This document shows positions 14,698-55,105 of a DNA stretch of 64,000 bases, piece after piece (within the stretch, counting starts at the first letter, position 1; the number at the start of each line of letters is the position of its first letter). Below the pieces are notes generated by a model. That model searched no databases and was not told the origin of the DNA. It saw only the letters and a list, made by a program, of their open reading frames with translations. The position numbers and the translations under genes were made by a program. Origin of the DNA: Candidatus Woesebacteria bacterium UBA5073 (GTDB taxonomy: Bacteria; Patescibacteriota; Microgenomatia; UBA8517); contig DIAR01000010.1 of the NCBI GenBank assembly GCA_002415845.1, positions 12,920 through 76,919 of the forward strand. The letters run 5' to 3'.

Positions 14698-15360
14698 TTA
14701 ATCAGTATATATCCTGGCCCTGACGATTAATCTTTTTAATTTCCTCGGATCCCCAGGCGGAACACAGGTTACCAGAGTTAAAAAAGAATCGCTGGCATTT
14801 TGCTCCAAAACCTGAATATCGGTCGGAAGAACCTCAAACAGATCTTCAACTCTATATTTAAAAGTAATTCCATCGTAATTGAGAACAATATCATCACCTT
14901 TCTTTAAGGTCGGAATAGTCGAAAAAATGGAAATGTAATCCTTTGGATTATAAAAAATAGGCAGGATTGAATGACCAAAGATAACCGCATTACCTTTTTT
15001 CCCTGGCAGGGCAGTTCCTGGATATTGAATAAGGCTTTTGCCTAAATCATCGCCACCAATTGCCACCGTCGCATTGTCAATTTTAAGTTTTGGAATCGAA
15101 AGGGTATAAAAAGAAACATTGGAAGCATTAAACTCTGCCTGATCGGCTCCGCCCACAAACCAATTGCTGGCCCGGGTGTAATCAAGATTGTCATTTTCAA
15201 CAACGGCCTTATTTTCAACCTCTGGACTAATTAGTTTTGGGTATCTGACCTTAGAGGCAGTTTCATAACCAACAATGGGCAGAATCACGGCTGCCAGAAT
15301 TCCTAAACCCGAGAGGGCAAAAACAACGGCAAAAATACGAAAAAGGATTTTATTCTTCAT
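14698..15360 (-). CDS. Sortase-family transpeptidase
   Basis: 220 aa. N-terminal TM anchor. Catalytic His region (AVIFGHS) and active-site TLVTC motif (TLxTC). The start lies 3 nt after the upstream gene's stop. Confidence 0.75.
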   Translation of the reverse strand: MKNKILFRIFAVVFALSGLGILAAVILPIVGYETASKVRYPKLISPEVENKAVVENDNLDYTRASNWFVGGADQAEFNASNVSFYTLSIPKLKIDNATVAIGGDDLGKSLIQYPGTALPGKKGNAVIFGHSILPIFYNPKDYISIFSTIPTLKKGDDIVLNYDGITFKYRVEDLFEVLPTDIQVLEQNASDSFLTLVTCVPPGDPRKLKRLIVRARIYTD

Positions 15361-15363: not shown

Positions 15364-17568
15364 TTATCTTTCGGCTGAAACAATCACGGTGATATTTTTC
15401 AAAACCCGAGGCATGGTTTTTAATTTACCGGGGAAGCTGGGTTTTATTTTAATATTGGCTCTGGTATATCCGGCAACAGCCGTGGCCAAATAAGGATCAA
15501 TTAGGGCCGGATATTTACCCAAAACACTACTTGTTATTTCATCAACCTTCACCTCAGGCAAAAGATTGACACTAAGAATTGTTGTTAGCTCGTAAACACC
15601 TTCTTCCCCTTTAACTAACTCATATTCCGTATCGATTTGCCCCTCTTTAAGAGCATAACCGGTTGGAATTTTACTGTTCAAAGCTTTTTTGGCCAGTTCA
15701 AACATATCGGTCTTGGCAACGGAAACACCGGAAACCGAAACTTTTAAGGATAATTTTAAATTGGTTGCTTCATCGCCAACCTTAGCGCTAAAAACTTTAC
15801 TGACAACCTCGGGTACAAAAGTGGCATTAATTAAAATCCGATCATCGGCTATTTGCTGACCTAAACTCTTAATCGCTTTTTCGGTCAATTCATTGGTTAA
15901 TTCTTTTTCCAACTTGGCCTGATCCTCAGAAGAGACGGAGGGAATTTCCCGGCTTGAACCTCCGGAAAAATTCTGGGTAGTAAGAGCATCAACTTCGCTT
16001 TTCGGATAGTTACCGATTTTAAAAACTTCATTTGCTCCCAGATTATATTCGGAGCCGATATCATAGGCAGCCACATCAACACTGCCCTCACCCGGCGTGC
16101 TGGGCGACAGTGCCGCCGAGACGGAAGCACTGGAAGTAGTGGTAAATTTCAAATCGGAAGCTGAATAAAGAATTGTTCCGGCCGGAAGATTGATAACCGC
16201 CGCTGTTCCGTTTTGGATTTTGACACTGCCTTTGGCTTTTTCTCCAATTGTCTTTGTTCCGGAAGTACTGGTTGTTTTTTCACCCGACTCTTCGGAGGTA
16301 TAGAGTTTTCCAGCCAAAAGACTGCCGTCAAAATCCGACTGGCTTTCGTTGATGTCAACCGAAAGGGTTAAATTTTCTTCCAAAATTTTGGGTGAAACAA
16401 AAATTTCCAGGGTGGCTTTGGGAATAAACCACCAGAAAAGAAAACCACCAACCAGAAAAACAACGGCTGCAATTAAGAGAGCAATTGTTGGTTTTTTCTT
16501 CACTACCCCTCCCAATCTTCTGTTTTCAACAATATTTTTTTTCTTAAAAGAAATCGGGAAGGCCGGTAGTTTTATCTTTTTCCAAAAAGCCAATTTCGAC
16601 AATATACCCGAAGGTTGGGTAGCAGTCGCCACTGGTTGAGACTGAGGTTGCTGGGGTACTTCTCCAATTGGCTCTGCTTTTGGTTTTTCGGTTATGTCTT
16701 CGTCAACCACAAAACCTAAATCTTCCGGGTGGACATCGGTCTCGGGAACTTGAACGTTGGCTGTTTCTTCCGGATAGGCTTCCATCTTTTCTTCTTCTTT
16801 CTTCACCCCTTCAACCTGAGAAATATTAGACATTTCGGAAGCCCCCGCCAGGGCAGTTGCCACTACTTTTTTATCGGCTTCAATGATTTCAATCTTGGGA
16901 GTATGTAAAAATTTAATCTTTTCATTTTCGTTCCAGGAAGCGGAAAGCAGGTTTTGCCTTATCTCCTCCAACTCTCCTCCCCGACCGTTATAAATTAAAA
17001 ACCTTGACGGCAGTGTTTCTCCGGTTACAAAACGGGAAAGGCCTTCAACCACATCGTCATAAACGGAAAGACTCCTTTGAACTGAAGCCGTACCAACCAA
17101 GTTGCCCAATTTAAAAACAGCCAATTCCAAATTTTCGCTACCGACTTCCAAAACAACTGCACTTAAAGGAGAGCCTTCTTCGGCTTTCATCAGGTGAGCT
17201 ATGGCTTCCGGCAGGACAACAAAGCCGGTTGGTTCCAGTGACAGTTCGGTACAGATTTTTTTAACCTGCTCCAAAAACTCGGGTTTAATCTGACCGTCGG
17301 TTACCCAAAAAGGAGGAACACCAAAAACCGTTTTTGATGGTTCCCCTACTTCTTCTGGTAAATTTTGAATGGCGGCCGACAAAACAGTGTCTGACGCAGA
17401 AATTAAATCATCCTCCGTTTCCCAAGGAGTGGCAGGAGAAACGGCCACCATTTCCGCCTTTTCGTTTTCAATTTTCCAAACACCGGCCTGAATCCAACCG
17501 GTTTCAATTACTAGTGCCCAATAATGTTCTTGGGCAGTACCTTTCGATAAAATACTTTTTAAATCCAT
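15364..17568 (-). CDS. Large single-pass membrane protein: N-terminal actin-fold (FtsA/PilM-like) cytoplasmic domain, one TM helix, about 350-aa extracytoplasmic domain
   Basis: 734 aa. The N-terminus (ALVIETGWIQAGVWKIE ... AVVLEVGSENLELAVFKLG) has the two glycine-rich phosphate-loop-like segments of the actin-fold (ASKHA) superfamily. The TM helix is IALLIAAVVFLVGGFLFWWFI, followed by a Ser/Thr-rich extracytoplasmic region. No recognisable C-terminal sorting signal. Confidence 0.35.
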   Translation of the reverse strand: MDLKSILSKGTAQEHYWALVIETGWIQAGVWKIENEKAEMVAVSPATPWETEDDLISASDTVLSAAIQNLPEEVGEPSKTVFGVPPFWVTDGQIKPEFLEQVKKICTELSLEPTGFVVLPEAIAHLMKAEEGSPLSAVVLEVGSENLELAVFKLGNLVGTASVQRSLSVYDDVVEGLSRFVTGETLPSRFLIYNGRGGELEEIRQNLLSASWNENEKIKFLHTPKIEIIEADKKVVATALAGASEMSNISQVEGVKKEEEKMEAYPEETANVQVPETDVHPEDLGFVVDEDITEKPKAEPIGEVPQQPQSQPVATATQPSGILSKLAFWKKIKLPAFPISFKKKNIVENRRLGGVVKKKPTIALLIAAVVFLVGGFLFWWFIPKATLEIFVSPKILEENLTLSVDINESQSDFDGSLLAGKLYTSEESGEKTTSTSGTKTIGEKAKGSVKIQNGTAAVINLPAGTILYSASDLKFTTTSSASVSAALSPSTPGEGSVDVAAYDIGSEYNLGANEVFKIGNYPKSEVDALTTQNFSGGSSREIPSVSSEDQAKLEKELTNELTEKAIKSLGQQIADDRILINATFVPEVVSKVFSAKVGDEATNLKLSLKVSVSGVSVAKTDMFELAKKALNSKIPTGYALKEGQIDTEYELVKGEEGVYELTTILSVNLLPEVKVDEITSSVLGKYPALIDPYLATAVAGYTRANIKIKPSFPGKLKTMPRVLKNITVIVSAER

Positions 17569-17583: not shown

Positions 17584-19341
17584 TTATTCTTTGGCAATGT
17601 AAATTCTGACTACCCCACCGCCAATTTTCTCCTGTTTAATTATTCTAACACGCCCGATTTCGGACGTATCTTCAACATGCGGTCCGCCACACACCTCTTT
17701 GGAGAAAAAGTCGGTGTTGGAATTGCCGATTGTATACACTTTAACCTTCTCTCCATATTTTTCACCAAAGAAGGCCAAAGCGCCTTTTTCCTTGGCTTCT
17801 TTAAGACTCATGGTTTCTACCTTAACAGGTAATTTTTTGGTAATTTGCTCGTTTATTAAATCGGAAACGGCTTTTAACTGCTCTTCGGTTAACTTTTCCG
17901 GATGGGAAAAATCAAATCTAAGCCGTTCGGAGGTAATATTGGAGCCTTTTTGCGAAATATGATTTCCCAATACTTTCCTTAAAGCCGCATGCAGTAAATG
18001 AGTTGTCGTATGAAATTGAGTTACTTCCTCCGACGCATCGGACAAACCGCCCTTAAACATGCCGGCCGAAGCTGTCTTGGATAGATTTTTGTGTTTGGCA
18101 AACTCTTCGGCAAAAACTTTTCGATTAATTTTCTGTCCCCGATCCAGCGCAATTTCTTCGGTTAATTCCAATGGAAAACCATAAGTTTCGTATAAGAAGA
18201 AAGCGTTTTTACCATCCAGCTCACCTATCTTTTCAATTTCTTTTAAACCCTTTTCCAGTGTCTGACTAAATTTATTCTCTTCTTCCTTAATTACAGCAAT
18301 AATCTCTTTTTCTTTTTCCTTTAAGGTTGGGTAGGCTTTTTTATAAGAATTAATAACCGCTTGAGCCACTTTCTCCAAGAATGGTTTGGCAATTTTTAAC
18401 TTTTTACCCCAGCGGACCGCCCTTCTTATTAATCTTCTTAACACATAGCCCTGAAGTTTATTGCCGGGAATTACCCCTTCAGCCGCTAAAAAAACGGAAG
18501 CTCTGATATGATCGGCAATAATCCGGAAAGCTTTAGTCTCGTCTTCATAATCCTTGCCTGAAATTTCTTTGATGGCCAAGATTATTTCACCCCATAAATC
18601 CTTAACTAAATAATCATCCGCTAAACCATTTAAAACAGCCGTAGTCCGGTCAACGCCCATCCCCGTATCAACATTGTTTTGTTTTAGAGGAATGTATTTC
18701 CCCTCACTGGTTTTGGCATACTGCATAAAAACGTTGTTCCAGATTTCCACAAACCGACCGCAGTTATCACCCGGACGACAATTACTGCTACAACTTTTCT
18801 CCCCTGTCTCAAAGAAAATCTCCGTATCCGGTCCACAAGGTCCCGTTTCCCCTGCCGGCCCCCACCAGTTATCTTCTTTGGATAGAAAATAAATTCTTTT
18901 TTCCGGAATACCAAGCTTTTTCCAAATCTCGGCCGATTCCGTATCTTTGGGAGCATCTTCATCACCCGCAAAACAAGTTATGGCCAGTTTATCTTTATTA
19001 ATTTTTAAAACCTCGGTTAAAAACTCAAAAGAATTTTTGATTGATTCTTCCTTCCAATAATCACCCAACGACCAATTACCAAGCATCTCAAAAAAAGTGT
19101 GGTGGGTGGTATCACCAACTTCATCAATATCGTCCGTGCGAAGACAAATTTGGTTGTTAGTTAACCTTTTTCCGGCAGGATGCTCCTCACCTAAAAAGTA
19201 AGGGACCAGAGGGTGCATGCCGGCGGTCGTAAATAAAACCGTCGGATCGTTTTCCGGAATTAAAGAAGCTGAGGGAATGACACTATGGCCCTTTTCTTTA
19301 AAAAATTGCAAATACTTTTCAACCAACTCTCTTGAAGTCAT
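17584..19341 (-). CDS. alaS: Alanine--tRNA ligase, short form (catalytic, tRNA-recognition and editing domains; no C-Ala domain)
   Basis: 585 aa. N-terminal class II AlaRS core (FTTAGMHPLVPYF, HHTFFEMLGNWS). Editing-domain HTTTHLLHAAL and CGGPHV motifs. Confidence 0.9.
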   Translation of the reverse strand: MTSRELVEKYLQFFKEKGHSVIPSASLIPENDPTVLFTTAGMHPLVPYFLGEEHPAGKRLTNNQICLRTDDIDEVGDTTHHTFFEMLGNWSLGDYWKEESIKNSFEFLTEVLKINKDKLAITCFAGDEDAPKDTESAEIWKKLGIPEKRIYFLSKEDNWWGPAGETGPCGPDTEIFFETGEKSCSSNCRPGDNCGRFVEIWNNVFMQYAKTSEGKYIPLKQNNVDTGMGVDRTTAVLNGLADDYLVKDLWGEIILAIKEISGKDYEDETKAFRIIADHIRASVFLAAEGVIPGNKLQGYVLRRLIRRAVRWGKKLKIAKPFLEKVAQAVINSYKKAYPTLKEKEKEIIAVIKEEENKFSQTLEKGLKEIEKIGELDGKNAFFLYETYGFPLELTEEIALDRGQKINRKVFAEEFAKHKNLSKTASAGMFKGGLSDASEEVTQFHTTTHLLHAALRKVLGNHISQKGSNITSERLRFDFSHPEKLTEEQLKAVSDLINEQITKKLPVKVETMSLKEAKEKGALAFFGEKYGEKVKVYTIGNSNTDFFSKEVCGGPHVEDTSEIGRVRIIKQEKIGGGVVRIYIAKE

Positions 19342-22432: not shown

Positions 22433-24088
22433 TTATATTTCTACTACCACAGGAAGCACCATCGGTCTTCTGCCGATTTCTTCATAGAAGTAGCGCTCCA
22501 GAAAGTCTGAAGTCATTTCTCGCAGCATCTTGGCGTCAAGTTTATTTCTTTTAACGATTCTTTCTTCAAGAAGTCTGGCTCCTCTTTCCAAGAAGCCCTT
22601 TCCTTTTTTCTCAAAAACAAAGCCCCGACTGATAATTTCCGGAGTATCAACTAATTTGCCGGCAAATTTATCCAGGTGAAGCATGACAATGGCTACCCCT
22701 TCATGGGCCAAAACCTGTCTGTCCCGAAGAACTACACTTCCCACATCACCAATTCCCAAACCGTCAACCAAAACATTTTTGACATGAATCCGGCCCGAGA
22801 TTTTAGCGCTTTTATTGGAAAACTCGATGATATCACCGGCTCCCGGTTCAAAAATATTCTGTTTGGGAGCTCCCATCCTTTGGGCGATACCGGAATAGGC
22901 ATGCATGTGTCTGACGGTTCCACCTATCGGAATGAAATACTTGGGTCGAACTAAGGCAAAAAGCATTTCAACGTCTTTTTCCGAACCGTGTCCCGAAACA
23001 TGCAAATCTTCCTGCATATCGTAGTAATGAACTTCAACATCCAAAGCAATCAGTTTATCCACCACCGCGTCAACATTGGTTTTTGATCCGGGTGGTGCAG
23101 GATCGGAAGAGAAAACAACAACATCGCCTGGCTCAACTGATAAAAACTGATGTTCGCCTATCGCAACCCTATAAAGAGCGCTTCCCGGTTGACCATAACT
23201 GCCGGAAATAATGTACATAATCCGATCCTTTGGTAATTTATTGGCTTCTTTTTGGGTAACGACCAAATCGGCGGGGTAGCTTAAATAGCCTAGGTTCTTG
23301 GCAATTTCGGCTTTCCTATCAATTGACCTTCCGACAAAAACGACTTTTCGTCCCAACTTCATGGCGACATTTAAGGCCTGCTTCATTCTGGAAATATTTG
23401 AGGAAATGGTCGTGAAGTAAACCTGTCCTTTGGCTCCCCTGACAATGGTTTCGATTCTTGATTCGATTTCTCTTTCGCTTTCGGTATAGCCGGGTGCGGT
23501 TGAACCAATACAATCGGAGGCCAAGGCCAGTGCTCCACCAGAAGCTAATTGTGCCAGTTTGGCTACATCAAACGGTCTACCGTCAACCGGCGTCCAGTCA
23601 AATTTATAATCCGGAACATGAAATAATCTGCCTTCAGGTGTATCAATCGCAAAACCAACGCCATCGGGAACCGAATGCGAAACCCTGAAAGGGGTAACTT
23701 TAAAGACACCAAAAGTTAGGGTGTCTTTCTCCGGATCAAAAACATTAATTTTGTTCTTCGGCCCCTCTTCATAATCGGCTAATTTATCTTCAATAAAGCC
23801 GGCCACCAGTTTAGTGGCATAAATCGGAGCATTTATTTCGGGTGGCAAAAAAGGAATGGCTCCCAAATGATCTTCATGAGCATGAGAAATAAGAATGGCT
23901 CTAATCTTGCTGGCGTTTTCCTTCAGGTAGGTAAAATCGGGAATAACCAAATCAACGCCGTACATTTCCGACTCCGGAAAGCCGACACCACAGTCAACGA
24001 CAATAATATCGTTCCCGTATTCATAGACATAAAGGTTTTCCGTAACGTTGGTTGTACCCGAAAGGGCAATTAATTTAAGTGAACTCAT
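22433..24088 (-). CDS. rnj: Ribonuclease J
   Basis: 551 aa. Metallo-beta-lactamase HAHEDH motif, beta-CASP and C-terminal domain. Confidence 0.9.
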   Translation of the reverse strand: MSSLKLIALSGTTNVTENLYVYEYGNDIIVVDCGVGFPESEMYGVDLVIPDFTYLKENASKIRAILISHAHEDHLGAIPFLPPEINAPIYATKLVAGFIEDKLADYEEGPKNKINVFDPEKDTLTFGVFKVTPFRVSHSVPDGVGFAIDTPEGRLFHVPDYKFDWTPVDGRPFDVAKLAQLASGGALALASDCIGSTAPGYTESEREIESRIETIVRGAKGQVYFTTISSNISRMKQALNVAMKLGRKVVFVGRSIDRKAEIAKNLGYLSYPADLVVTQKEANKLPKDRIMYIISGSYGQPGSALYRVAIGEHQFLSVEPGDVVVFSSDPAPPGSKTNVDAVVDKLIALDVEVHYYDMQEDLHVSGHGSEKDVEMLFALVRPKYFIPIGGTVRHMHAYSGIAQRMGAPKQNIFEPGAGDIIEFSNKSAKISGRIHVKNVLVDGLGIGDVGSVVLRDRQVLAHEGVAIVMLHLDKFAGKLVDTPEIISRGFVFEKKGKGFLERGARLLEERIVKRNKLDAKMLREMTSDFLERYFYEEIGRRPMVLPVVVEI

Positions 24089-24708
24089 ATAATTTCTAAC
24101 TGTTCTGTTTGTGTTGTTTTTTCTTTGTTTTCTTTAATTTCATTTAATAATTCCGGAATTTTTAAAAAGTCTTCTTTAATCTGAAGCATGACATCGTTTC
24201 TTCTTAAAGCGGCTGCCGGATGATACATTGGCAATACAACAATTTCTTTACCGTTTAATTGTATACGATGAACTTTACCGTGAACAGAGCTAATCTTTAC
24301 CCCCGGGATAAACTTGCCCATCGAAAACCGGCCCAAGGTCACAATAATTTTTGGATCAATAACACTAATCATTTCATCGATATACGGTTTGAAAGCGGCA
24401 ATCTCGGCATCTTCAGGATCTCTGTTTTCGGGCGGTCTGAAACAAACGACATTGGAAATGAAAACTTCCTTTCTCTCTAATTCAATTGAATGAAGTAACT
24501 TATCTAATAGTATCCCTGCGTTACCGACAAACGGTCGGCCCTTCTGATCTTCCCAGTAGCCTGGGCCTTCACCCAAAAAGAAAACTTTCGTCTCCGGATT
24601 ACCTTCACCAAAAACCATACAGGTTGCCGTTTTCCTTAAAGGCAATGTTTTATCCGCAGCCATTTTGGCTCTTAATTTAAGCAGTTGGTCTTTTTTCGTT
24701 GAATTCAT
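24085..24708 (-). CDS. Uracil-DNA glycosylase, family 4-like (apparently lacking the full Fe-S cysteine set)
   Basis: 207 aa. GEGPG motif A and HPAAAL motif B. Only two Cys residues where family 4 normally has four. Confidence 0.75.
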   Translation of the reverse strand: MNSTKKDQLLKLRAKMAADKTLPLRKTATCMVFGEGNPETKVFFLGEGPGYWEDQKGRPFVGNAGILLDKLLHSIELERKEVFISNVVCFRPPENRDPEDAEIAAFKPYIDEMISVIDPKIIVTLGRFSMGKFIPGVKISSVHGKVHRIQLNGKEIVVLPMYHPAAALRRNDVMLQIKEDFLKIPELLNEIKENKEKTTQTEQLEII

Positions 24709-24720: not shown

Positions 24721-25767
24721 TTACTGGGGAAGGAAAGTTTTAACATTCTCCGGAGTTATTTTAAACGTTTTTCCTTTTCCTTCAACTATCATCATCGCCA
24801 CCTTTCGAACAATGCTATCAATCGTTCTCTCCAGAGTTCTGATACCGGCATCATAACCCAGAGGCCTCACAATATTGGTCCAAACGGTCTCATCAATCGT
24901 TAAAACATCAGGTGTAATTCCGGCCGTTTTAATGGCTTTAGGCAAAACATATTTTTGGCCAATAGTAATTTTTTCGATATCAGAATAAGAAGGCATCATG
25001 ATCGGTTCAAGTCTGTCCAGAACGGCCGTTGAGATGTTAGTCGTATTATTGGCCGTGGCGATAAACAAAGCGTTAGAAAGATCAAAAGGATAATCAATGT
25101 AATGGTCAACAAAACTGTGATTTTGTTCCGGATCCAAAAGCTCAACCAACACACCCATGATGGAAGCCCTACCTAAATCAGTTACTCGGTCAATTTCATC
25201 CAGAAGGATTACCGGGTTGGCACTTTGGGTTAATTTTAAGGCTTTGATAATTTTCCCCGGTTCGGCTTCGGAATGCATCCTTGATTGGCCTCTTAAATCC
25301 AATGGATCACCCATTCCGCCGAAAGGAATACGGGCAAACTTGCGGCCCAGGGCTTCGGCAATTGAATAGGCAATGGTTGTTTTACCGGTACCCACCAGTC
25401 CCACAAAACAAAGAATCGGCGCCCGGTAAATATCGGCACTCTCGCCTTTCTCCTGTTTTAATTTCATAACCGAAATATATTCCAGAATTCTCTCTTTAAT
25501 TTCGGATAAACCAAAATGGTGTGTATCCAAAATCTGTCTGGCGTTATTAAGATCAAGGTTGTCCTGGGTTTTGGCACTCCACGGCAGAGCCGTAATCCAA
25601 TCAATGTATTTTTCAATCCGGTCAAATTCCGGTAAAAAAGTGGGTGAGTCAGTTAACTTGGTTAATTGGGAAAGTCTCACTAAAACACTCTCAGTTAGCT
25701 TATCAGGAAGTTTGGCCTTTTTAATAGTTTCGGCCAATATATCAATATCTTTTGCGGCAGTATCCAT
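24721..25767 (-). CDS. Lon-like AAA+ ATPase module, with no N-terminal LON domain and no S16 protease domain
   Basis: 348 aa. Aligns by eye to the Lon AAA+ region: HHFGLSEIKERILEYISV, Walker A GLVGTGKTT, RGQSRMHSEAEPGKIIKAL, Walker B ILLDEIDRV, LLDPEQNHSFVDHYID, LDRLEPI sensor region. The ORF ends at the end of the AAA lid, before where the S16 KDGPSAG domain would start. Confidence 0.7.
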   Translation of the reverse strand: MDTAAKDIDILAETIKKAKLPDKLTESVLVRLSQLTKLTDSPTFLPEFDRIEKYIDWITALPWSAKTQDNLDLNNARQILDTHHFGLSEIKERILEYISVMKLKQEKGESADIYRAPILCFVGLVGTGKTTIAYSIAEALGRKFARIPFGGMGDPLDLRGQSRMHSEAEPGKIIKALKLTQSANPVILLDEIDRVTDLGRASIMGVLVELLDPEQNHSFVDHYIDYPFDLSNALFIATANNTTNISTAVLDRLEPIMMPSYSDIEKITIGQKYVLPKAIKTAGITPDVLTIDETVWTNIVRPLGYDAGIRTLERTIDSIVRKVAMMIVEGKGKTFKITPENVKTFLPQ

Positions 25768-25794: not shown

Positions 25795-28080
25795 TTATCT
25801 TGAGAAGTCTTTCTTCTTGTCGTCTAAAAATCGGCTCGTCGGGAAATGAGGACCAGACGATCTTCGATTATCACTTCCAAATCTTCGCTCGCCTCCGCCC
25901 CTGTCATATCTTCTGGGAGCACTTCCTCCTCGGCCAAAACTTTGACCGGGACGTTCATAATGTCTTTCTCCGCCACCGAAACCTCCACCTTGTTTTTTCT
26001 CTTTGTCGTGTGCCGGATCCATCAGCATGGAAAGATTAATTCTGCCCAAATCGTCGATTTCCTTAACCCTAACTTGAACTTTGTCCCCGATTTGCACAAC
26101 TTCGTTCGGATCTTTGACAAAATCTTCCTTCATGTCGGAAACATGAACCAAACCGTCTTTCCCTGGAAGGATTTCGACAAAGGCACCAAAAGGCTGAATT
26201 CTTTTAACTTCGCCCTCATAAATTTCTCCGGCGACAACTTCTTTAATCAAGCCTTCAACCATAGCAACGGCTTTATCAACCGAATCGCTATCCATTCCGG
26301 AGATGTTGGCGCTGCCGTCATCTTCAACTTCAACCTGGGCTCCTGATTCGGCAATAATCTTTTTAATCATCTTGCCACCCGGACCAATAACTTCACCGAT
26401 TTTTTCAACCGGGATCTTAACCACTTTAATCTTCGGGGCAAAGTTGGAAATCTTGGTTCTTGGTTCACCTAAGGTTTCGAGCATGAACTTTAAAATGGTT
26501 TCTCGGGCAACTTTTGCCTGACTAATAGCATCTTTCAAAATAGCCGGCGTTAGGTTTAAAGTTTTTACATCCAACTGCATGGCCGTGACACCTTTTTTGG
26601 TACCGGTAACTTTAAAGTCCATGTCACCCAAATGATCTTCCATACCGATAATATCGGAAAGGACAGCATACTTTTTCGGTGTGTCGATAATCAAACCCAT
26701 GGCAATTCCGGAAACCGGTGAGGTTATAGGAACTCCCGCATCCATTAAAGAAAGGGTTGAACCGCAGGTCGAAGCCATTGAGGTTGAACCGTTGGAACTC
26801 ATAACTTCAGAAACTACCCTAATCGTATAGGGGAATTTATCGGAAGTTGGAATAACCGGCTCCAAAGCACGTTCAGCCAAGGCACCATGTCCAATTTCTC
26901 GTCTTGAAGGCGATCCGACTCTGCCCGCTTCACCGGAGGAAAAAGGCGGCATGGCATAGTGATGAATATATCTTTTTGATTCTTCGCCTTCGGCCGATTC
27001 AATCAACTGTTCCATGGCCGGCGTACCCAAGGTGGTAATGGTTAAAACTTGAGTCTGACCTCTTTGAAAAATAGCACTACCGTGAGTTCTGGGTAAAATT
27101 CCAACCTGACCGAAAAGTTTTCTGATTTCGGTGTGTTTTCTGCCATCCGGTCTTTTTCCGGCCAAAATAAGTTCCCTAACCCGATCCCGCATAATGGCAT
27201 CAAAGGCACCGACAACCACTTCAGGTTTTGTCTCTTCCAACTCTTCAATTAAAGCTTTTTTGGCTTCGTTGTATTCAACCTGTTCACCCTCATGACCGGC
27301 CCAGTCTTTAATTAAATCGTCTAATTTTTCTCCAATCAACTTTTTAACTTTTGACTTTAGCTCGGTGGTTATTTCCTCTGCAGGCAAGACTTCCTTTTTC
27401 TTGCCAACTTCAGCAGCAAAATCATTGATAAACTTTAAAACTTTATCAGCTTCCTTCTTGGCAAATTCAATACCACCCAAAATATCCTTTTCCGGGACTT
27501 CATTGGCACCGGCTTCAATCATGACGACGGCTTTATCGGTTGCAGAAACAACCAAATCCATATCGGAGAAAGCCATTTCCGAAACTACAGGATTAACAAA
27601 ATAGGTTCCTTCTTTAAGACCGACTCTTAAAGTGGCTGTCGGACCCATCCAAGGAATATTCGAAACGGAAAGGGCGGCCGAAGCTGCAATGGCTGAGAGA
27701 ATCATCGGATCATTTTCAATATCAACCGATAAAACGGTGATAATGACCTGAACTTCTTTTTTGTAAGTTGAAGGGAAAAGGGGTCTAATCGTTCGATCAA
27801 TGAGTCTAGCCGATAAAATCTCGTCATCGGAAGGTCGGCCTTCTCTTTTAACCCAGCGGCTGCCTTTAATACGACCTCCCGCATAGAGTTTTTCCATGTA
27901 ATCAACGGTTAAAGGAAAGTAACCCAAATCAACTTTCAGAGGAGCTCCAACAACCGTAGCCAAGACAACGGTTTCACCATATCGAGCCAAAACGGCACCT
28001 GAGGCTTGTTCAGCTAATAGTCCTGTGGAGAGGGTTAATTTTCTGCCCCCTAATTCAATTTCTTTTTCGATTTTTTTCAT
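25795..28080 (-). CDS. pnp: Polyribonucleotide nucleotidyltransferase (PNPase) with Gly/Arg-rich C-terminal tail
   Basis: 761 aa. Two RNase PH domains, KH and S1 domains. C-terminal roughly 70 aa are low-complexity: GGGFGGGERHYERPGQSFGRGGSAPRRYDRGGGERRFGSDNRR. Confidence 0.95.
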   Translation of the reverse strand: MKKIEKEIELGGRKLTLSTGLLAEQASGAVLARYGETVVLATVVGAPLKVDLGYFPLTVDYMEKLYAGGRIKGSRWVKREGRPSDDEILSARLIDRTIRPLFPSTYKKEVQVIITVLSVDIENDPMILSAIAASAALSVSNIPWMGPTATLRVGLKEGTYFVNPVVSEMAFSDMDLVVSATDKAVVMIEAGANEVPEKDILGGIEFAKKEADKVLKFINDFAAEVGKKKEVLPAEEITTELKSKVKKLIGEKLDDLIKDWAGHEGEQVEYNEAKKALIEELEETKPEVVVGAFDAIMRDRVRELILAGKRPDGRKHTEIRKLFGQVGILPRTHGSAIFQRGQTQVLTITTLGTPAMEQLIESAEGEESKRYIHHYAMPPFSSGEAGRVGSPSRREIGHGALAERALEPVIPTSDKFPYTIRVVSEVMSSNGSTSMASTCGSTLSLMDAGVPITSPVSGIAMGLIIDTPKKYAVLSDIIGMEDHLGDMDFKVTGTKKGVTAMQLDVKTLNLTPAILKDAISQAKVARETILKFMLETLGEPRTKISNFAPKIKVVKIPVEKIGEVIGPGGKMIKKIIAESGAQVEVEDDGSANISGMDSDSVDKAVAMVEGLIKEVVAGEIYEGEVKRIQPFGAFVEILPGKDGLVHVSDMKEDFVKDPNEVVQIGDKVQVRVKEIDDLGRINLSMLMDPAHDKEKKQGGGFGGGERHYERPGQSFGRGGSAPRRYDRGGGERRFGSDNRRSSGPHFPTSRFLDDKKKDFSR

Positions 28081-28462: not shown

Positions 28463-29362
28463 TTAACTGACTGAGGTTCCCTTATAAATCTTGGGCTCCA
28501 GCCAATCCTTCGGAGCCGGCTTTGCATCTTCGGGTTCTTCCTGAATTGGTGCAGCCTGGCTAAAAACCGGCTGTTCAGGAACCGTTTTTTCAAAAACAGG
28601 TTTTTCACCGGGAATTGAACCCATCGGATAATTATCCCGGGAAATTCTTTCCGACAAAACTCTTCGCCCCCCGGCTTTCATTAAGTTGGCCATAGCAACA
28701 AAGGTTTCGGCCGTCACTTCAAAGCTTTTCAAGCCCCGGCTGCCCTCTTCAATTCCGGCAATCAGGTTGGTCGCAATATCCGCTCCCAGATCAAAATTAC
28801 CTTCAAAGATAAGGGCTGAGACAATCTCAGAAACCGACGCGGCGGGCCTGGCAAAAGAAAGAACATTTTCATTTCCGGTTAAAGCCAGGGCTTTCGTTCC
28901 AATATGTAAAATTTTGGCATCAGCCAAATCTTTACCAAGAATCGGAAAGTGGGAAGAATTGGCTCCACCAACCAAAATAATCGTATCGGCCGAAATACCC
29001 GAATAGGAAATATCGACCTGGTCTTTGGTTGGAGCCATAAAACCGCTTTTCGGAACAACCGTTAACTTAAACTCACCGTTCTCAATATCATAGCTGACCT
29101 TCTCAATATCGGCCGCTTTATAGCCGGCAAATTTCATGGTCATGTTTTTATTTCCCAAATCCTGGGTAATCTTATCAACCCCAACCAGGCGGTGAAACTC
29201 AACCAGCATGTCAGCCGGACAGGAAATGCTTGTTTCTTTTTTGGTTGAAAGGGAAAGATAAAGTCCCAACGCAGCCGCCACTTGGTCAAAATAAGGCTTG
29301 GTTGGGAGCATAACAAGAACAGAGTTGGAGGCATTTATGATCTGCGAGAATGAATTTTCCAT
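28463..29362 (-). CDS. Hypothetical protein in the infB-rpsO operon; possibly a degenerate DHH-family (NrnA/CnpB-like) protein
   Basis: 299 aa. Sits where rbfA, truB or a DHH phosphoesterase lie in other bacteria. N-terminal LVMLPTKPYFDQVAAALGLYLSL and central TIILVGGANSSH resemble DHH motifs I and II with the catalytic Asp/His positions substituted. This is a weak, by-eye assignment. Confidence 0.3.
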   Translation of the reverse strand: MENSFSQIINASNSVLVMLPTKPYFDQVAAALGLYLSLSTKKETSISCPADMLVEFHRLVGVDKITQDLGNKNMTMKFAGYKAADIEKVSYDIENGEFKLTVVPKSGFMAPTKDQVDISYSGISADTIILVGGANSSHFPILGKDLADAKILHIGTKALALTGNENVLSFARPAASVSEIVSALIFEGNFDLGADIATNLIAGIEEGSRGLKSFEVTAETFVAMANLMKAGGRRVLSERISRDNYPMGSIPGEKPVFEKTVPEQPVFSQAAPIQEEPEDAKPAPKDWLEPKIYKGTSVS

Positions 29363-29370: not shown

Positions 29371-30771
29371 TTAGGCGACCGATACTAACATATCGCCTTT
29401 AGCAAAATCAAGCTGGGGCTCAATTAAGACCCCAAATTCCTCACCCTGGGAAACTTCGGACACTTCCTGTTTTTGTTTTTTGAGGGAGATCGCTCTGACT
29501 TTTCCGATTTCTTTCTCATCGCGCATTAATAAGAGTTTGGTATTTTTGCTGATTTTCCCGCTCAAAATCTTACAGCCGGCAATTTTTTTGTTGTTGAAGG
29601 GGAAAATGGCCACAATTTCAGCCTTCCCCAAGATAACCGTTTTACCTTTTTGAACCAAAGCTTCCAATGCCTCAAAAAGTTCATAAATAATATCAAAGCT
29701 CTTAATGGTTACGCCTTCGGCTTCGGCCAATTTTGAAACGCCGGATGAAGCTTTGGCCTCAAAAGCAAAAATTAAACCGCCCGAGGATTTAGCCATTAAA
29801 ACATCCGATTCATAAATATCACCGACGCTGGCTTCAACCACAATTGCACCGGCAGGAAGATTATTTAAAACCGCTTCCAAGGCCCCTTTATTTTCAGCTT
29901 TGATAACCACGCCAACTTCTTCTTTGCCAACCTTAATTCGGTTTTGTTTCTCCTCTTTTTTAGCAAAGGCCGTTTCTGAAGATGCGATTCTCGAACCAAC
30001 CTCGGGTAGAATTTCAAAACCCAGAACTTGTCCGGCAAAACCGGGAAGAATTTCTTTAGCCCCGCCCTTTTCAGTTAAAATTCCCCTCACCTTAAAACTG
30101 CCCGCATCGGAAAAGAGGCTATCGCCGACCTTGACACTGCCGTTTCGAACAATAACACTGGCCGAAATTCCCCTTTGGTCTTTAACACTTTCAATAACCA
30201 AAGCTTCCAGCGCATCTTCCTTATTGGCTTTAATCTCGTTAACATCAGCCACTAAGGAGATTAATTCCAAGAGTTCTTCAATCCCTTTCCCGGTTTTAGC
30301 CGAAACACCTAAATAAGGCGTGTCACCACCCCGGCCTTCAAACAAAACATTTTCTTTCTCAAGTTGTCCTAAAACCGATTCGATGTTGGTCGACGGCAAA
30401 TCGATTTTAGTTAAAGCAACAATAAAAGGAATTTCGGCTTCTCTTATAAAGGACAGGGCTTCTTTAGTTTGCGGCATCACTCCATCCCCGGCAGCTACAA
30501 CCAAAATAGCAATATCGGCCACCTTGGCCCCACGTGATCTCATCTTGGAAAAAGCAGCATGACCGGGAGTATCAATAAAGGTAATCATCTTTCCCTCTTT
30601 GGTTTTGACTTCCGAAGCTCCGATTTTTTGGGTAATGCCACCTTTTTCTTTTAAGGCCACGCGGGTTTTCCGGATGGTATCCAAAAGAGTGGTTTTGCCA
30701 TGATCAACATGTCCGAGGATGGTGACAATCGGCGGACGAACAGAACTACTGGTTTTTTTATCTTTTTCCAT
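29371..30771 (-). CDS. infB: Translation initiation factor IF-2, short form (G domain onward)
   Basis: 466 aa. [27 protein letters not shown] and the downstream beta-barrel domains. The long N-terminal region of classical bacterial IF2 is absent. Confidence 0.9.
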   Translation of the reverse strand: MEKDKKTSSSVRPPIVTILGHVDHGKTTLLDTIRKTRVALKEKGGITQKIGASEVKTKEGKMITFIDTPGHAAFSKMRSRGAKVADIAILVVAAGDGVMPQTKEALSFIREAEIPFIVALTKIDLPSTNIESVLGQLEKENVLFEGRGGDTPYLGVSAKTGKGIEELLELISLVADVNEIKANKEDALEALVIESVKDQRGISASVIVRNGSVKVGDSLFSDAGSFKVRGILTEKGGAKEILPGFAGQVLGFEILPEVGSRIASSETAFAKKEEKQNRIKVGKEEVGVVIKAENKGALEAVLNNLPAGAIVVEASVGDIYESDVLMAKSSGGLIFAFEAKASSGVSKLAEAEGVTIKSFDIIYELFEALEALVQKGKTVILGKAEIVAIFPFNNKKIAGCKILSGKISKNTKLLLMRDEKEIGKVRAISLKKQKQEVSEVSQGEEFGVLIEPQLDFAKGDMLVSVA

Positions 30772-35364: not shown

Positions 35365-36090
35365 TTAACCGATTTCTTCAATTAAGCCCTTAAAATACCG
35401 TAAAATCGGAATAACCGTTGGGTAACTTAATCTGACCGGTCCGATTATGCCCAAAGCACCCTTTTTCCCTTTAACGTCAAAGTGGGTAGTGACCACACCA
35501 ATCGGTGATAATTCCGGCCAACCCATTTCTTCACCGAATAAAACATCGATCGGGCTTCCAGATGGGGCTTTTTGAAAAAAAAGTTCCCTGACCCGGTCAA
35601 CTTCTTCCAACATACCAAACAAGCTGGCACAAACCCGAATATCGGCAAACTCGGGATTAACAAAAATATTGGCATAACCTGCATGCCAAATCTTCCCTTC
35701 ATCGGTAGCGGCAATCGCCAGACTTTTAGTTCTTTCAGCCAAAGCATGGGTAGCTTCTTCCAAAAGGGAATCTAAATTGTTTCTTGAGTCCCAAACCTCT
35801 TCTTTGGTTTTAACCTCGTCGGCCAAACTCATTTGCCGTTCTTCCATTAATTGGTCAATGTAAAATTTCATGGCGGTGGGGGTCGGAATTCGACCGGCTG
35901 AAGTATGGGGTTGCTTTAAATAATTTAATTTGGTCAGTTCAACCATTTCATTTCTAATGGTTGCGGGAGAAACTCCTAAATTATATTTTTTGTCCAGGTT
36001 TTCCGAACCAACCGGACCAGCTTGTTCAATGTATTCGTCAATTAAAGCTTTTAAGATTTGTGTTTGTCTGGCACTTAATCCTTCAGTCAT
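35365..36090 (-). CDS. hrcA: Heat-inducible transcription repressor HrcA (short)
   Basis: 241 aa. LSARQTQILKALIDEYIEQAGPVGSE winged-helix N-terminus. A CIRCE operator lies immediately upstream. Confidence 0.85.
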   Translation of the reverse strand: MTEGLSARQTQILKALIDEYIEQAGPVGSENLDKKYNLGVSPATIRNEMVELTKLNYLKQPHTSAGRIPTPTAMKFYIDQLMEERQMSLADEVKTKEEVWDSRNNLDSLLEEATHALAERTKSLAIAATDEGKIWHAGYANIFVNPEFADIRVCASLFGMLEEVDRVRELFFQKAPSGSPIDVLFGEEMGWPELSPIGVVTTHFDVKGKKGALGIIGPVRLSYPTVIPILRYFKGLIEEIG

Positions 36091-36092: not shown

Positions 36093-36119
36093 TTAGCAGT
36101 AATGTAGCATGAGTGCTAA
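36093..36119 (-). promoter_or_regulatory. CIRCE operator (HrcA binding site) overlapping the hrcA promoter
   Basis: Minus strand reads TTAGCACTC-atgctacat-TACTGCTAA; the plus strand reads TTAGCAGTA-N9-GAGTGCTAA. The consensus is TTAGCACTC-N9-GAGTGCTAA. The ATG follows 2 nt downstream. Confidence 0.85.
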
Positions 36120-49603: not shown

Positions 49604-50666
49604 TCAGAAGATCGCTTACCCAAGCGTTCACTTTCGTCCAATCTCCGTCTTTGGGAATAAAAACATATTGATTGTCATATTCTGTGGTTGGTTTGGGATT
49701 AACTAAAAAGTCCTCGGATAAAACAACCGATCGGATATGACTACTCGCCTCTAAAAACTTTCGTCCCAAGATAGCCACCGCCGATGAATCAATATCCGTC
49801 TCGACCGAATTTACAAAAACTTTCCAAATACCAAACATTTTTTTAGGCGAAAGAAAAACAGACGGGTTTAACATTTTTGTTTTAATGGCCGAAAGCATTT
49901 TTTGCTGACGGGCTTCCCTGGCTAAATCCGTTCCCTCAACACCTGAAGAGTTCCTCGACCGGACATACTTTAAAGCCGTTGTTCCATCCATATGCATTTT
50001 TCCTTTTTCAAAAGTTATTGTTTCATAACGGCACTTATATTCCTTATCCCCGTCACATAAATCGTTTTCTTTACCATAAATGGGATATTTTTCATCGGTA
50101 AAAGAATTTTCAACCATGACGTCAATTCCTCCGATCACATCGATTGCTTTGGTAAAACCGGAAAAATCAATTACCAGCCCGTAATGAATCGGTTGTCCCA
50201 CAATTTCCCCAACCAGTGATTTAGCTAAATCCATTCCGCCCCATTCTTCTTTTTGTTTTCCCCAAAAATAGGCACTGTTTAACTTGGCCCTAATTTCCGG
50301 TACCCAGATATCTCTTGGTAAAGAAACCATTACGAGGGATGGTTTCTCAATGGAAAGCGAGGCGAAAATAATCGTGTCGGTTAAGTCGGGGGCCGTAAAA
50401 CCAGTTCCGCTTCGTCCCAGAATTAAAATATTGGTTCTCCCGGCAAAAGTTTTAATTTTTGTTTCCGGCGTAAACAAGAAATCGGTGATCAGGTGGCGAT
50501 TATTATATTTACCAAAAAAGAAACCGGCAAAAAGAAGAACGGAAACAAGGGAAACAAAAATGAGAAGAATTAGATTGAGCATCGCCTGTTTTTTTCTTCC
50601 CCCAATAGCCCCAACATCACCCTGCCTTTGATCTTTAGAATTGCTATACTGCATCGATATGACCAT
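49593..50666 (-). CDS. LytR-CpsA-Psr (LCP) family phosphotransferase (cell-wall glycopolymer ligase)
   Basis: 357 aa. N-terminal TM helix, then the LCP core: NILILGRSG...DTIIFASL...SLPRDIWV...KLNSAYFWG...IHYGLVIDFSGF..IDVIGGIDV. The true start may be an internal Met, since the annotated 5' end overlaps the divergent pcrA start. Confidence 0.8.
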   Translation of the reverse strand: MVISMQYSNSKDQRQGDVGAIGGRKKQAMLNLILLIFVSLVSVLLFAGFFFGKYNNRHLITDFLFTPETKIKTFAGRTNILILGRSGTGFTAPDLTDTIIFASLSIEKPSLVMVSLPRDIWVPEIRAKLNSAYFWGKQKEEWGGMDLAKSLVGEIVGQPIHYGLVIDFSGFTKAIDVIGGIDVMVENSFTDEKYPIYGKENDLCDGDKEYKCRYETITFEKGKMHMDGTTALKYVRSRNSSGVEGTDLAREARQQKMLSAIKTKMLNPSVFLSPKKMFGIWKVFVNSVETDIDSSAVAILGRKFLEASSHIRSVVLSEDFLVNPKPTTEYDNQYVFIPKDGDWTKVNAWVSDLLTRN

Positions 50667-52560
50667 TTTATCGCATCAGGAGAGGATTACAAAGCTCCTT
50701 TTAGGCCTCAATAAAGAACAGGAAGAAGCCGTTACAACCAAAGAAAGATTGCTTTTAATTCTGGCAGGGGCCGGCAGCGGCAAAACCAAGGTTCTCACCC
50801 ACCGAATGGCTTATTTTTTAGCCAACGGTTTAAGCCCTGAAAACGTTCTTCTTTTAACTTTCACCAATAAAGCGGCTGAGGAAATGAAAAAAAGAGTGGT
50901 TAACCTGGTTGAAATTGCTCCTTTTTTTGCCGGAACATTTCACTCTTTTTGTGCCAGAATCTTAAGGCTTGATGGTCGAGACATTGGTATTCCCCCCGGC
51001 TTTTTAATTTATGACGAGCAGGATCAAAAAGATGCCGTTAAGGAAATCCTGAAAAATCTAAATTATTCATCCGATTCCTTTAACCCGAAATCAATTCTAA
51101 ATTCAATCTCGGAAATCAAAAATCAAATGCTTTCCCCCACACAGTACGCTGAATTTGCCCAGGGCGACTGGCAGGAAACGGTTCTTAAGGTTTACATTGA
51201 ATACGAAAAGTTCTTAAAAGAAGTCGGGGCCTTGGACTTTGACGACTTGCTCATTAAAACGGTCAAACTTTTTAAAGAAAGTCCCCAAACCTTAAATAAA
51301 TGGCAAAAGCGATTAACCAATATTTTTGTTGATGAATGGCAGGACACCAATAAAATCCAATACACCTTGATTAAACTCTTAATGACCCCAAACACTGACT
51401 TAAGTGTTGTGGGAGACGCTTCCCAATCAATTTATTCCTGGCGCGGAGCCGATTTTAGGAATATCACCAATTTAGTTAAAGACTTTCCAAAAATAAAAAT
51501 CATTAACCTGGAACAAAATTACCGTTCCACCCAAAACATCCTCGATGCCGCCAACGCCGTTATTTCCAAAAATACCGGGCACCCCATCCTTAAACTCTGG
51601 ACCGAAAACGACAAGGGTGAAAAGATAAATATCTACACAGCCAAAAACGGACTGGACGAAGCTGACTTTTTAGTCAATCGAATCGACGAGTTGGTAAAAA
51701 ACAAAATGGCCCTCTCCGATATGGCTGTGTTATTTCGCACCAATGCTCAATCCAGAGTTATTGAAGAAGCCTTTCTGCATAGCGGTATCCCTTATGTTTT
51801 AATCGGGGGTACCCGCTTTTATGACCGTAAGGAAATCAAAGATGTTTTAGCTTACCTTAAACTCTTGGTTAGACCAAAAGACAAAGTTTCCGAAAAAAGA
51901 TTAATCAAACTTGGAAAAAGAAGATTTGATAAATTTCTACTGTTTAAAGACGGGGTGAAAGATCCCGAGAATATGAAGACCTTGGATTTATTGGATTTGA
52001 TTTTGGAAAAAACGGATTATCTCTCGCTTTTTGAAAGAGAGTCGGAAGAAAATTTAGCCCGGTTGGAAAACATCAAGGAACTCCGTTCCGTCGCTACCGA
52101 GTTTTCAGATATCACCGAATTTTTGGAAAACGTAGCTTTAGTTGAAGCCGAACAAAACGCCAAAGGCAGACTTAAAAGAAATCTGGATGCCAATGCCGTT
52201 ACCTTAATGACCCTCCATGCCGCTAAAGGTCTTGAGTTTCCGGTCGTTTTTATTATTGGCTTAGAGGAGGGCTTATTTCCTCACGCCAAAGCTTTAATGG
52301 ACACGGGGCAATTGGAAGAAGAAAGAAGGTTGGCCTATGTCGGTATTACCCGAGCCAAGGATTTGTTGTATCTGTCATACGCCTCTCGAAGGCTTTATTT
52401 TGGCGAAAATGTTTCCAACCCGCCTTCCCGTTTTATAATGGATATACCGGAAAAACTAATAAAAGAAGTCGGAAGCTTTAAGGAGAAAAAAGGAAAAGTT
52501 TCTTCTGAGGATTCCGATTTCTATAGTTTTGACGATATAATCGATAAGTACATCAAATAA
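50641..52560 (+). CDS. pcrA: UvrD/PcrA-family superfamily-1 DNA helicase
   Basis: 639 aa. LNKEQEEAV, Walker A AGAGSGKTKVL, motifs II-VI (DEWQDTN, VGDASQSIYSWRGA, YRST, LMTLHAAKGLEFP, VGITRAK). An alternative start is MTILSHQ at 50659. Confidence 0.9.
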   Translation: MLYCIDMTILSHQERITKLLLGLNKEQEEAVTTKERLLLILAGAGSGKTKVLTHRMAYFLANGLSPENVLLLTFTNKAAEEMKKRVVNLVEIAPFFAGTFHSFCARILRLDGRDIGIPPGFLIYDEQDQKDAVKEILKNLNYSSDSFNPKSILNSISEIKNQMLSPTQYAEFAQGDWQETVLKVYIEYEKFLKEVGALDFDDLLIKTVKLFKESPQTLNKWQKRLTNIFVDEWQDTNKIQYTLIKLLMTPNTDLSVVGDASQSIYSWRGADFRNITNLVKDFPKIKIINLEQNYRSTQNILDAANAVISKNTGHPILKLWTENDKGEKINIYTAKNGLDEADFLVNRIDELVKNKMALSDMAVLFRTNAQSRVIEEAFLHSGIPYVLIGGTRFYDRKEIKDVLAYLKLLVRPKDKVSEKRLIKLGKRRFDKFLLFKDGVKDPENMKTLDLLDLILEKTDYLSLFERESEENLARLENIKELRSVATEFSDITEFLENVALVEAEQNAKGRLKRNLDANAVTLMTLHAAKGLEFPVVFIIGLEEGLFPHAKALMDTGQLEEERRLAYVGITRAKDLLYLSYASRRLYFGENVSNPPSRFIMDIPEKLIKEVGSFKEKKGKVSSEDSDFYSFDDIIDKYIK

Positions 52561-54635: not shown

Positions 54636-55105
54636 GATAAGATTTTCTCTTTGTTCTCTTCGATTAATTGTTTTTGTTCCGGCCAAAAGAAGGAGGGTAT
54701 ATCATCTAAATCAAACCACTCTAAAATTAAATCTTCTTCACCATCTTGCAGCTTTTGATTTCCTTCCATCTGTTCCGTTGAAAAAAGAAAATAATCTATA
54801 ACTGCCCAAAAACTCTTGTCAAAAGTTAATCGTCCCTTCTGACCTAAATAGGTCAAATATTTTAGTTTGTTTAACCCTGTTTCTTCCTCTATCTCTCTTT
54901 CTGCCGCCTGTTTAACCGACTCGGCATTTTCAATACCACCTTTGGGAATCATGTAATCATGAAATTTTGTATCCCTTATTAAGGCAATTTTAATTTGCTT
55001 ATTTTCCCTTCTTGCCACAATACCCCCCGCAGCCTTTCTCGTTTCAATTCCATCAGGTTTTACAAACCAACTATTATCAATTTTTGTATCAGCCTTCATA
55101 TCCAC
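54614..55105 (-). CDS. NUDIX hydrolase
   Basis: 163 aa. Nudix box GGIENAESVKQAAEREIEEETGL (Gx5Ex7REUxEExGU). Confidence 0.85.
   Translation of the reverse strand: MDMKADTKIDNSWFVKPDGIETRKAAGGIVARRENKQIKIALIRDTKFHDYMIPKGGIENAESVKQAAEREIEEETGLNKLKYLTYLGQKGRLTFDKSFWAVIDYFLFSTEQMEGNQKLQDGEEDLILEWFDLDDIPSFFWPEQKQLIEENKEKILSYFNLKS

Follow-up and report, generated by a model that had tools for sequence, protein, structure and literature searches.

A recent classification describes all Lon proteins as combining an ATPase domain with a protease domain (PMC9569914). An open reading frame (ORF) that matches only the ATPase portion of Lon, found in the genome of Candidatus Woesebacteria bacterium UBA5073 (assembly GCA_002415845.1), raises the question of whether such a protein works in its own right or is what remains of a protease gene in decay. 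In this study, we examined the ORF within a window of 64,000 nucleotides (contig DIAR01000010.1, positions 12,920 to 76,919), which is the whole stretch of DNA that was analyzed and to which all coordinates below refer. The original prediction for this locus, made from the nucleotide sequence, described a Lon-like AAA+ module at positions 24721 to 25767 and proposed either a stand-alone unfoldase or chaperone, or a domain-level gene remnant. Our findings demonstrate that the protein is a descendant of LonA that is fixed across much of the bacterial candidate phyla radiation (CPR), namely in Microgenomates-type lineages and some others. It is probably a functional, stand-alone Lon derivative that forms rings and hydrolyzes ATP without proteolysis, with a remodeled acidic pore that would suit a remodeler or chaperone better than a classical threading unfoldase.

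The LonA ATPase module

Residues 1-346 of the window protein align collinearly with residues 244-579 of Escherichia coli Lon, and a collinear alignment is also obtained with Bacillus subtilis Lon. By this alignment the 348 residues comprise exactly the three-helix bundle, the nucleotide-binding AAA+ domain and the lid of LonA, whereas nothing is left of the N-terminal substrate-binding domain, of the long helix or of the S16 protease domain. A Pfam scan recovered AAA at residues 119-257 (E 3.7e-17) and Lon_lid at residues 280-333 (E 2.8e-11) and no further domain, so that neither Lon_C (PF05362) nor PF02190 was matched in the 348-residue protein. The NCBIfam model TIGR00763 ("lon", the endopeptidase La equivalog) gave an E value of 1.9e-99, but over profile positions 252-570 of 795 only. 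This partial span and a score of 334.2 bits, which does not reach the equivalog cut-off of 608, indicate that only the middle of Lon is present, as the original prediction had stated. The score against PRK10787 also remains below its cut-off (241 versus 891), and no NCBIfam model specific to a protease-less ATPase was matched. A phmmer search of the PDB sequences returned exclusively LonA chains, with B. subtilis Lon at E 8e-80, and identity to the solved LonAs is 36-38%. The ORF and its parts are as follows.

24721..25767, (-) strand: LonA-derived ATPase ORF, 348 amino acids, ATG start, TAA stop
25588..25767, (-): three-helix bundle, residues 1-60, from the AlphaFold2 helices and alignment to E. 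coli Lon 244-~303
24994..25506, (-): nucleotide-binding alpha/beta domain of the AAA+ module, residues 88-258, from Pfam AAA and AlphaFold2 secondary structure
25378..25401, (-): Walker A, GLVGTGKT, residues 123-130, with K129 invariant
25195..25212, (-): Walker B, VILLDE, residues 186-191, with D190 and E191 invariant
25048..25050, (-): sensor-1 Asn240 (N473 of E. coli Lon), invariant
25012..25014, (-): arginine finger Arg252 (R484 of E. coli Lon), invariant
24730..24981, (-): alpha-helical lid, residues 263-346, from Pfam Lon_lid (280-333) and AlphaFold2
24838-24840, (-): sensor-2 Arg310, inside the lid, invariant

The AlphaFold2 model (mean predicted local distance difference test score 90.4) contains helices at residues 2-17, 22-37 and 44-60, and residues 1-60 are the counterpart of helices alpha8-alpha10 of E. 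coli Lon, which make up the C-terminal portion of its HI(CC) domain (PMC6722904, PMC8519571). The first residue of the window protein aligns with residue 244 of E. coli Lon, and in the crystal structure 6N2I the first ordered residue is A247, just before helix alpha8 (PMC6722904). The protein begins at the first helix of the bundle that follows the long helix, and not inside the long helix itself as had been supposed. The C-terminus is located in the linker between the AAA+ and protease domains, about 2 residues beyond the lid. The top PDB matches found by Foldseek are the AAA+ modules of LonA proteins (template modeling scores of 0.81-0.87), and 6N2I, which covers residues 235-584 of E. coli Lon, has a target-normalized score of 0.87 to the model of the window protein.

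The residue set of an active AAA+ ATPase is present. All 137 family sequences compared (120 close and 17 distant) carry K129, D190/E191, N240, R252 and R310 without exception, which corroborates the predicted retention of the Walker A, Walker B and sensor residues and adds the arginine finger to them. A family-specific feature of Walker A is a Leu where LonA has Pro.

The ORF cannot be extended at either end, because the stop codon of pnp (encoding PNPase) lies 27 nucleotides upstream and the start codon of udg (encoding a uracil-DNA glycosylase, UDG) lies 12 nucleotides downstream. These are the tight flanks noted in the original prediction, and its statement that no S16 ORF is adjacent was upheld by translated searches. 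When the N region (residues 1-245) and the P domain (residues 585-784) of E. coli Lon were compared by tblastn with all frames of the window, the best E value was about 2. Searches with three Lon N regions and three Lon P domains likewise had no match, neither in the window nor in the 10 kb around the gene at 49 CPR loci that carry the family (45 from a scan of GTDB species-representative genomes and 4 found through exact protein look-up). A protease or N domain hidden by a frameshift or placed in a neighboring ORF was thus rejected, and there is no protease domain downstream that repair of a frameshift might restore, because udg occupies this DNA and no frame has S16 similarity. One weak tblastn match at 14830-14991 was considered as a hidden Lon domain and discarded, as the gene at this position encodes a sortase.

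The closest physical analogue of the protein is E. coli Lon(235-584) (6N2I), a laboratory fragment obtained by limited proteolysis whose boundaries are nearly identical: residues 1-346 of the CPR protein correspond to chain residues 4-339. In its crystals the fragment binds ADP, and its subunits are arranged in an open helical hexamer (PMC6722904). However, it is an artificial piece of a protease with canonical pore loops, whereas the CPR protein is natural, is maintained by selection and has remodeled loops. The closest conceptual analogue is LonC of Meiothermus taiwanensis, also a Lon derivative that has lost half of its activities, for which a chaperone-like role is reported (PMC3391209, PMC13069640). 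LonC is a mirror image of the CPR protein, since it retains the protease with an inactive ATPase, while the CPR protein retains the ATPase motif residues and has no protease. The family belongs neither to LonB, in which a membrane anchor is inserted into the AAA+ module and a P domain is present, nor to LonC, which combines a degenerate ATPase with a P domain (PMC9569914), given that it has no P domain, no insertion in the AAA+ module and intact Walker motifs.

Remodeled pore loops

Unlike the nucleotide site, the central-pore loops of the protein depart from those of LonA. In canonical LonA the pore-loop-1 sequence (I/L)(R/K)GHRRTY(I/V)G(A/S)(M/L)PG is practically invariant. Its Tyr and the following Ile/Val form a pincer on the substrate together with an aromatic residue of pore-loop 2, and the gripping residues are numbered Y397/I398 and W431 (PMC8503904; PMC8519571). 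Comparison of the alignments gives the following for the window protein.

25255..25293, (-): remodeled pore-loop 1, RGQSRMHSEAEPG, where LonA has RGHRRTY(I/V)GAMPG
25159..25185, (-): pore-loop 2 region, VTDLGRASI

At the site of the LonA pore-loop-1 motif the window protein reads LRGQSRMHSEAEPG, which places M-H-S-E opposite T-Y-(I/V)-G. In pore-loop 2 the LonA aromatic (F/Y/W) is replaced by Gly, and G-D-P is replaced by A-S-I. The same pattern extends to the family. Ten positions are at least 90% conserved among 101 canonical LonAs but less than 50% conserved among 69 family members, and seven of these lie in or next to pore-loop 1 (E. coli Lon 387-400) or at G434 of pore-loop 2. T397, Y398 and G400 are 98-100% conserved in the LonAs and fall below 50% in the protease-less family, and G434 is conserved in LonA and unconstrained here. 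A check on the pore-loop Tyr that the original prediction had recommended thus came out against its conservation, with His in the window protein and no constraint across the family.

The loop nonetheless carries a conserved pattern of its own. Among 48 CPR loci, the former Tyr position is occupied by Phe in 9, His in 8, Ser in 8 and Tyr in 6, with varied residues in the rest, and the next position is Pro in 27. The LonA Gly has become Glu or Asp in 42 of these loci, and the LonA Met/Leu has become Glu in 45. The resulting family consensus, x-x-P-(D/E)-A-E-P-G, stands in place of RRTY(I/V)G. To judge by this residue pattern, pore-loop 1 has been rebuilt into a conserved acidic motif and is not simply degraded. 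The mean isoelectric point of the module is 6.1 in the family versus 7.3 in LonA. The residues that we take to form the basic DNA-binding patch of E. coli Lon are not conserved even among canonical LonAs.

These changes bear directly on whether the protein might be a classical stand-alone threading unfoldase or disaggregase, comparable to ClpB or to ClpX without its peptidase. The ATPase engine and the three-helix bundle are intact, some members have Phe or Tyr in pore-loop 1, and an hrcA-grpE-dnaK-dnaJ operon is located about 5 kb upstream of the ATPase gene on the same strand. However, the aromatic-hydrophobic-Gly tripeptide is not conserved (the window protein has His, and the family tends to Pro at the hydrophobic position and Asp/Glu at the Gly), no substrate-recognition domain is present, and the only heat-shock operator of the window precedes hrcA, with none near the ATPase gene. 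ClpB/Hsp104, or ClpX without ClpP, are stand-alone AAA+ chaperones of the same clade that resemble the presumed CPR ring in acting on proteins without degrading them, and a likeness between the LonA HI(CC) region and the ClpB D1 helical domain has been noted (PMC6722904), but these chaperones need conserved aromatic pore residues as well as dedicated N or M domains, and the CPR family has neither. Loss of the Tyr-Ile/Val-Gly pincer and of the pore-loop-2 aromatic makes processive, Lon-like threading improbable, and we regard a classical threading enzyme as very unlikely. The word "unfoldase" in the original prediction is accordingly the doubtful part of its proposal, because the grip residues of the pore loops are gone.

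Taken against LonA as a whole (E. coli Lon, B. subtilis LonA and human LONP1; TIGR00763, MEROPS S16.001), the CPR protein shares the three-helix bundle, the AAA+ domain and the Lon-type lid, with Walker A and B, sensor-1, the arginine finger and sensor-2 at the same positions. It differs in that the LON N domain, the S16 Ser-Lys protease domain and the long helix are all missing, and in carrying P-(D/E)-A-E-P-G in the absence of both RRTY(I/V)G and the pore-loop-2 aromatic. As the N domain, the protease domain, the pore motif and the model score cut-off all fail, the protein should not be called a Lon protease, and "Lon-derived AAA+ ATPase" is the more suitable name.

Distribution, phylogeny and selection

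Among 5.8 billion proteins searched, more than 120 clusters with lengths of 347-365 amino acids (nearly all of 348-349) have 75-81% identity to the window protein and, where they are named, an assignment to Woesebacteria or Patescibacteria. These clusters are labeled "AAA family ATPase" by NCBI and "ATP-dependent Lon protease" by the Joint Genome Institute (JGI). Distant members, recovered by an exhaustive search of 50%-identity representatives, share 41-56% identity with the window protein, and every one of them ends at the lid. No intermediate or fused Lon forms occur among the 150 best of these representatives. Some longer members carry N- or C-terminal extensions, which are of low complexity and contain no Pfam domain, so that no Rosetta-stone fusion partner emerged.

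The 49 CPR loci, in which the protein is 40-77% identical to that of the window, present the same picture. Their ORFs end 0-8 residues past the lid, except for one with a low-complexity tail of 75 residues, and similarity to the Lon N or P domain within 10 kb was found for none of them. All 37 non-CPR loci, by contrast, are contiguous N-AAA-P genes. The scan records, where named, bear labels of Woese-, Shapiro-, Ames-, Levy-, Davies-, Roizman- or Nomurabacteria or of "Patescibacteria group". As a separate observation, the labels given by submitters are wrong for many CPR contigs (L010, L011, L013 and others) when judged by gene content and synteny. Examples are contigs titled "uncultured Gammaproteobacteria", "Pseudomonadales" and "Candidatus Methanoperedens", and organism names of metagenome-assembled genomes are unreliable in such cases. 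In a neighbor-joining tree based on 336 aligned columns, every one of 100 bootstrap replicates keeps the 60 protease-less sequences apart from the 52 canonical LonAs.

It is conceivable that the protease has merely moved elsewhere. In a split Lon, the ATPase would join a separately encoded S16 protein or another peptidase to reconstitute an ATP-dependent protease, in the manner of ClpX with ClpP. Two-component AAA+ proteases do exist, an aromatic residue is kept at the pore-loop Tyr position in about a third of the species, and the scan for S16 genes covered the 64-kb window and flanks of 10 kb in relatives. Nevertheless, a partner S16 gene near the orthologues was rejected, as neither S16 nor LON-N similarity was found within 10 kb at any of the 49 CPR loci, and the absence of intermediate or fused forms among the 150 best representatives also speaks against a split. 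The family places no constraint on RRTY(I/V)G, which does not vary in any canonical LonA examined, and has lost the aromatic residue of pore-loop 2; a motor that feeds a protease is not expected to lose its translocation loops, which makes a split Lon less likely. We consider it quite unlikely.

The protease-less ATPase is under strong purifying selection. Between orthologues at 77% identity the nonsynonymous rate (dN) is 0.18 and synonymous sites are saturated. Since the synonymous rate (dS) is saturated in all available orthologue pairs, and copies with 100% identity do not differ at any nucleotide, dN can be said only qualitatively to be far below dS. For 17 genomes that contain the whole neighborhood, the mean identity to the corresponding protein of the window was as follows.

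S15: 63.3%
Lon-like ATPase: 58.8%
FtsK: 57.5%
PNPase: 52.7%
RNase J: 44.0%
IF2: 43.5%

The conservation of the ATPase is thus close to that of S15 and FtsK, and it exceeds that of PNPase, RNase J and IF2 in the same genomes. The comparison with orthologues that the original prediction had called for therefore places the gene with its housekeeping neighbors, and no relative was found in which a degenerate copy of the ORF accompanies a full-length Lon.

The same data settle the fate of the second explanation in the original prediction, that of a decaying lon fragment that stays in frame by chance. The domain boundaries do resemble a clean truncation. However, decay is contradicted by the recurrence of these boundaries in more than 120 close clusters and in the 49 CPR loci, by catalytic residues that do not vary, by a dN of 0.18 with dS at saturation, by a level of conservation equal to that of S15 and FtsK, and by the gain of a new conserved motif. 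In view of this family-wide conservation the remnant explanation is rejected and can be regarded as effectively refuted, while the alternative of a stand-alone Lon derivative stands.

In targeted full-text searches of the literature, we came across no account of a Lon without its protease in CPR bacteria. A census of CPR protein families (Méheust et al. 2019) lists a single Lon family, K01338, in 911 CPR and 983 non-CPR genomes, and the full N+AAA+Lon_C architecture is present in only 56% of its members. This family probably includes the protease-less ATPase, lumped in without remark. Given the lumped family and the JGI label, metabolic reconstructions may credit many CPR bacteria with a Lon protease that they do not visibly encode. 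What is found instead is a whole bacterial radiation with a protease-free Lon motor, rebuilt pore loops and selection of housekeeping strength.

A separate oddity among Lon proteins, found outside the window in the search of representatives (P0121, P0122, P0123 and others), consists of two to three tandem Lon-type AAA+ modules followed by a single Lon_C domain. These tandem-module proteins have no LON N domain, and some of their modules have degenerate or deleted pore loops.

Proposed activity and genomic neighborhood

How might a Lon ATPase without its protease be used? An arginine finger is useful only between subunits, and from the invariance of the trans-acting Arg252 and the hexamer packing of 6N2I we infer that the protein would assemble into a Lon-like oligomeric ring and hydrolyze ATP. 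Alone, the protein cannot carry out proteolysis. Instead, ATP-driven movements of the ring most likely serve to bind, remodel or release client proteins without degrading them, and a ring of Glu/Asp residues in the pore might, more speculatively, be suited to basic clients.

Several points weigh against this proposal of a non-proteolytic remodeler. In roughly one third of the species, the position once held by Tyr still has Phe or Tyr, and for this reason some grip on polypeptides, and hence real unfolding, may remain. The oligomeric state, the ATPase activity and the clients are all inferred. The protease domain helps to hold the Lon hexamer together, a contribution for which the family may or may not have a substitute. 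An S16 protease encoded by a separate gene may be present elsewhere in the genome. Finally, the 49 CPR loci offer no conserved partner gene beyond a housekeeping block that is syntenic in general. If the function is confirmed, the family would provide a natural system for studying the role of the Lon ATPase apart from proteolysis, that is, the long-debated chaperone role of Lon, and would help to explain protein quality control in the ultra-small cells of CPR bacteria.

The genes nearest to the ATPase gene are listed here.

25795..28080, (-): pnp (PNPase), upstream neighbor, 27 nucleotides from the ATPase gene
24085..24708, (-): udg, family-4-type uracil-DNA glycosylase, downstream neighbor, 12 nucleotides from the ATPase gene
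22433..24088, (-): rnj (RNase J), overlapping the udg stop by 4 nucleotides
35365-36090, (-): hrcA

They belong to a co-directional block with the order hrcA-grpE-dnaK-dnaJ-nusA-infB-(299-residue ORF)-rpsO-pnp-[ATPase gene]-udg-rnj-ftsK, from which infB-rpsO-pnp-lonAAA-(udg)-rnj-ftsK is conserved among relatives. In about 26 of the 49 CPR loci the gene immediately upstream, in the same orientation, is pnp, and udg and/or rnj lie within two genes downstream in about two-thirds of them, down to 46% identity. Unrelated neighbors occur in a subgroup (L020, L027, L029, L036, L039 and L040) and in the most distant members. Scans of the window for promoters and terminators gave no signals above the shuffled background.

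This arrangement suggests a further possibility, in which the protein is an accessory ATPase of the RNA-decay or ribosome-associated machinery that has PNPase and RNase J as its targets or partners and might, for instance, remodel their complexes or basic tails. The recurrence of pnp, udg and rnj beside the gene is consistent with such a role, short gaps and terminator-like signals within background are compatible with co-transcription, and the basic, Gly/Arg-rich tail of PNPase could be matched to the acidic pore of the family. Yet the whole infB-rpsO-pnp-...-rnj-ftsK block is syntenic, so that adjacency is not specific to this gene and is weak evidence for a functional link; the subgroup and the most distant members with unrelated neighbors lack the association; and an acidic pore speaks against direct RNA binding. 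An accessory role in RNA decay is on balance unlikely.

A broader scenario than the remodeler proposed above is that the ATPase is the sole Lon-type protein of these reduced genomes, Lon having been converted once, early in CPR, from a protease to a non-degradative ATPase, with its hydrophobic gripping loops turned into an acidic P-(D/E)-A-E-P-G pore that would receive basic clients such as the Arg-rich tails of RNA-decay or ribosomal proteins. We offer this scenario tentatively, as a possibility with appreciable doubt attached. If the conversion from protease to ATPase is real, it would add a functionally new class to the Lon derivatives and amount to a natural experiment that separates ATPase and chaperone activities from proteolysis.

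The C-terminal tail of PNPase, about 75 residues beyond the S1 domain (25798-26022, (-)), is rich in Gly and Arg and basic, with 15 Gly and 12 Arg among 74 residues. Some CPR relatives apparently have such a tail, whereas others do not.

Heat-shock regulation of the ATPase gene was considered and rejected. The window contains a single repeat resembling the controlling inverted repeat of chaperone expression (CIRCE), TTAGCAGTA-N9-GAGTGCTAA at 36093-36119, directly upstream of hrcA. No matches to such a repeat are expected in shuffled sequence, and the window scan found none near the ATPase gene. An origin in a defense system was also rejected, as PADLOC produced only weak generic P-loop matches, the best being DolB (E 4.4e-07) to part of the AAA core. 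A phage origin was dismissed because matches in phage collections are canonical Lon at 36-43% identity. The context is one of housekeeping genes, with no signal of defense systems or phages.

Other genes of the window deserve brief mention. The ORF of 299 amino acids between infB and rpsO (28463-29362, (-)) has no Pfam match, and its position is kept in many CPR loci at 26-56% identity. This slot is the one in which rbfA and truB are located in other bacteria. Two proteins encoded on the same strand are short, namely alanyl-tRNA synthetase (17584-19341, (-)) with only 585 amino acids and IF2 (29371-30771, (-)) with only 466. Their E. coli counterparts are much longer, and the short forms fit the trimming at the level of domains that is typical of CPR genomes. 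In an otherwise housekeeping region, an ORF of 734 amino acids (15364-17568, (-)) has only a weak match to Baseplate_J-like (E 2.6e-06). The sortase gene (14698-15360, (-)) is directly downstream of it, and the pair is also found in identical contigs from other samples. Two genes for UvrD-family helicases lie a few kb apart, at 50641-52560 (+) and 55089-58037 (-). The second encodes a fusion to a PD-(D/E)XK nuclease, resembling AddA/AddB, and is followed by rmuC.

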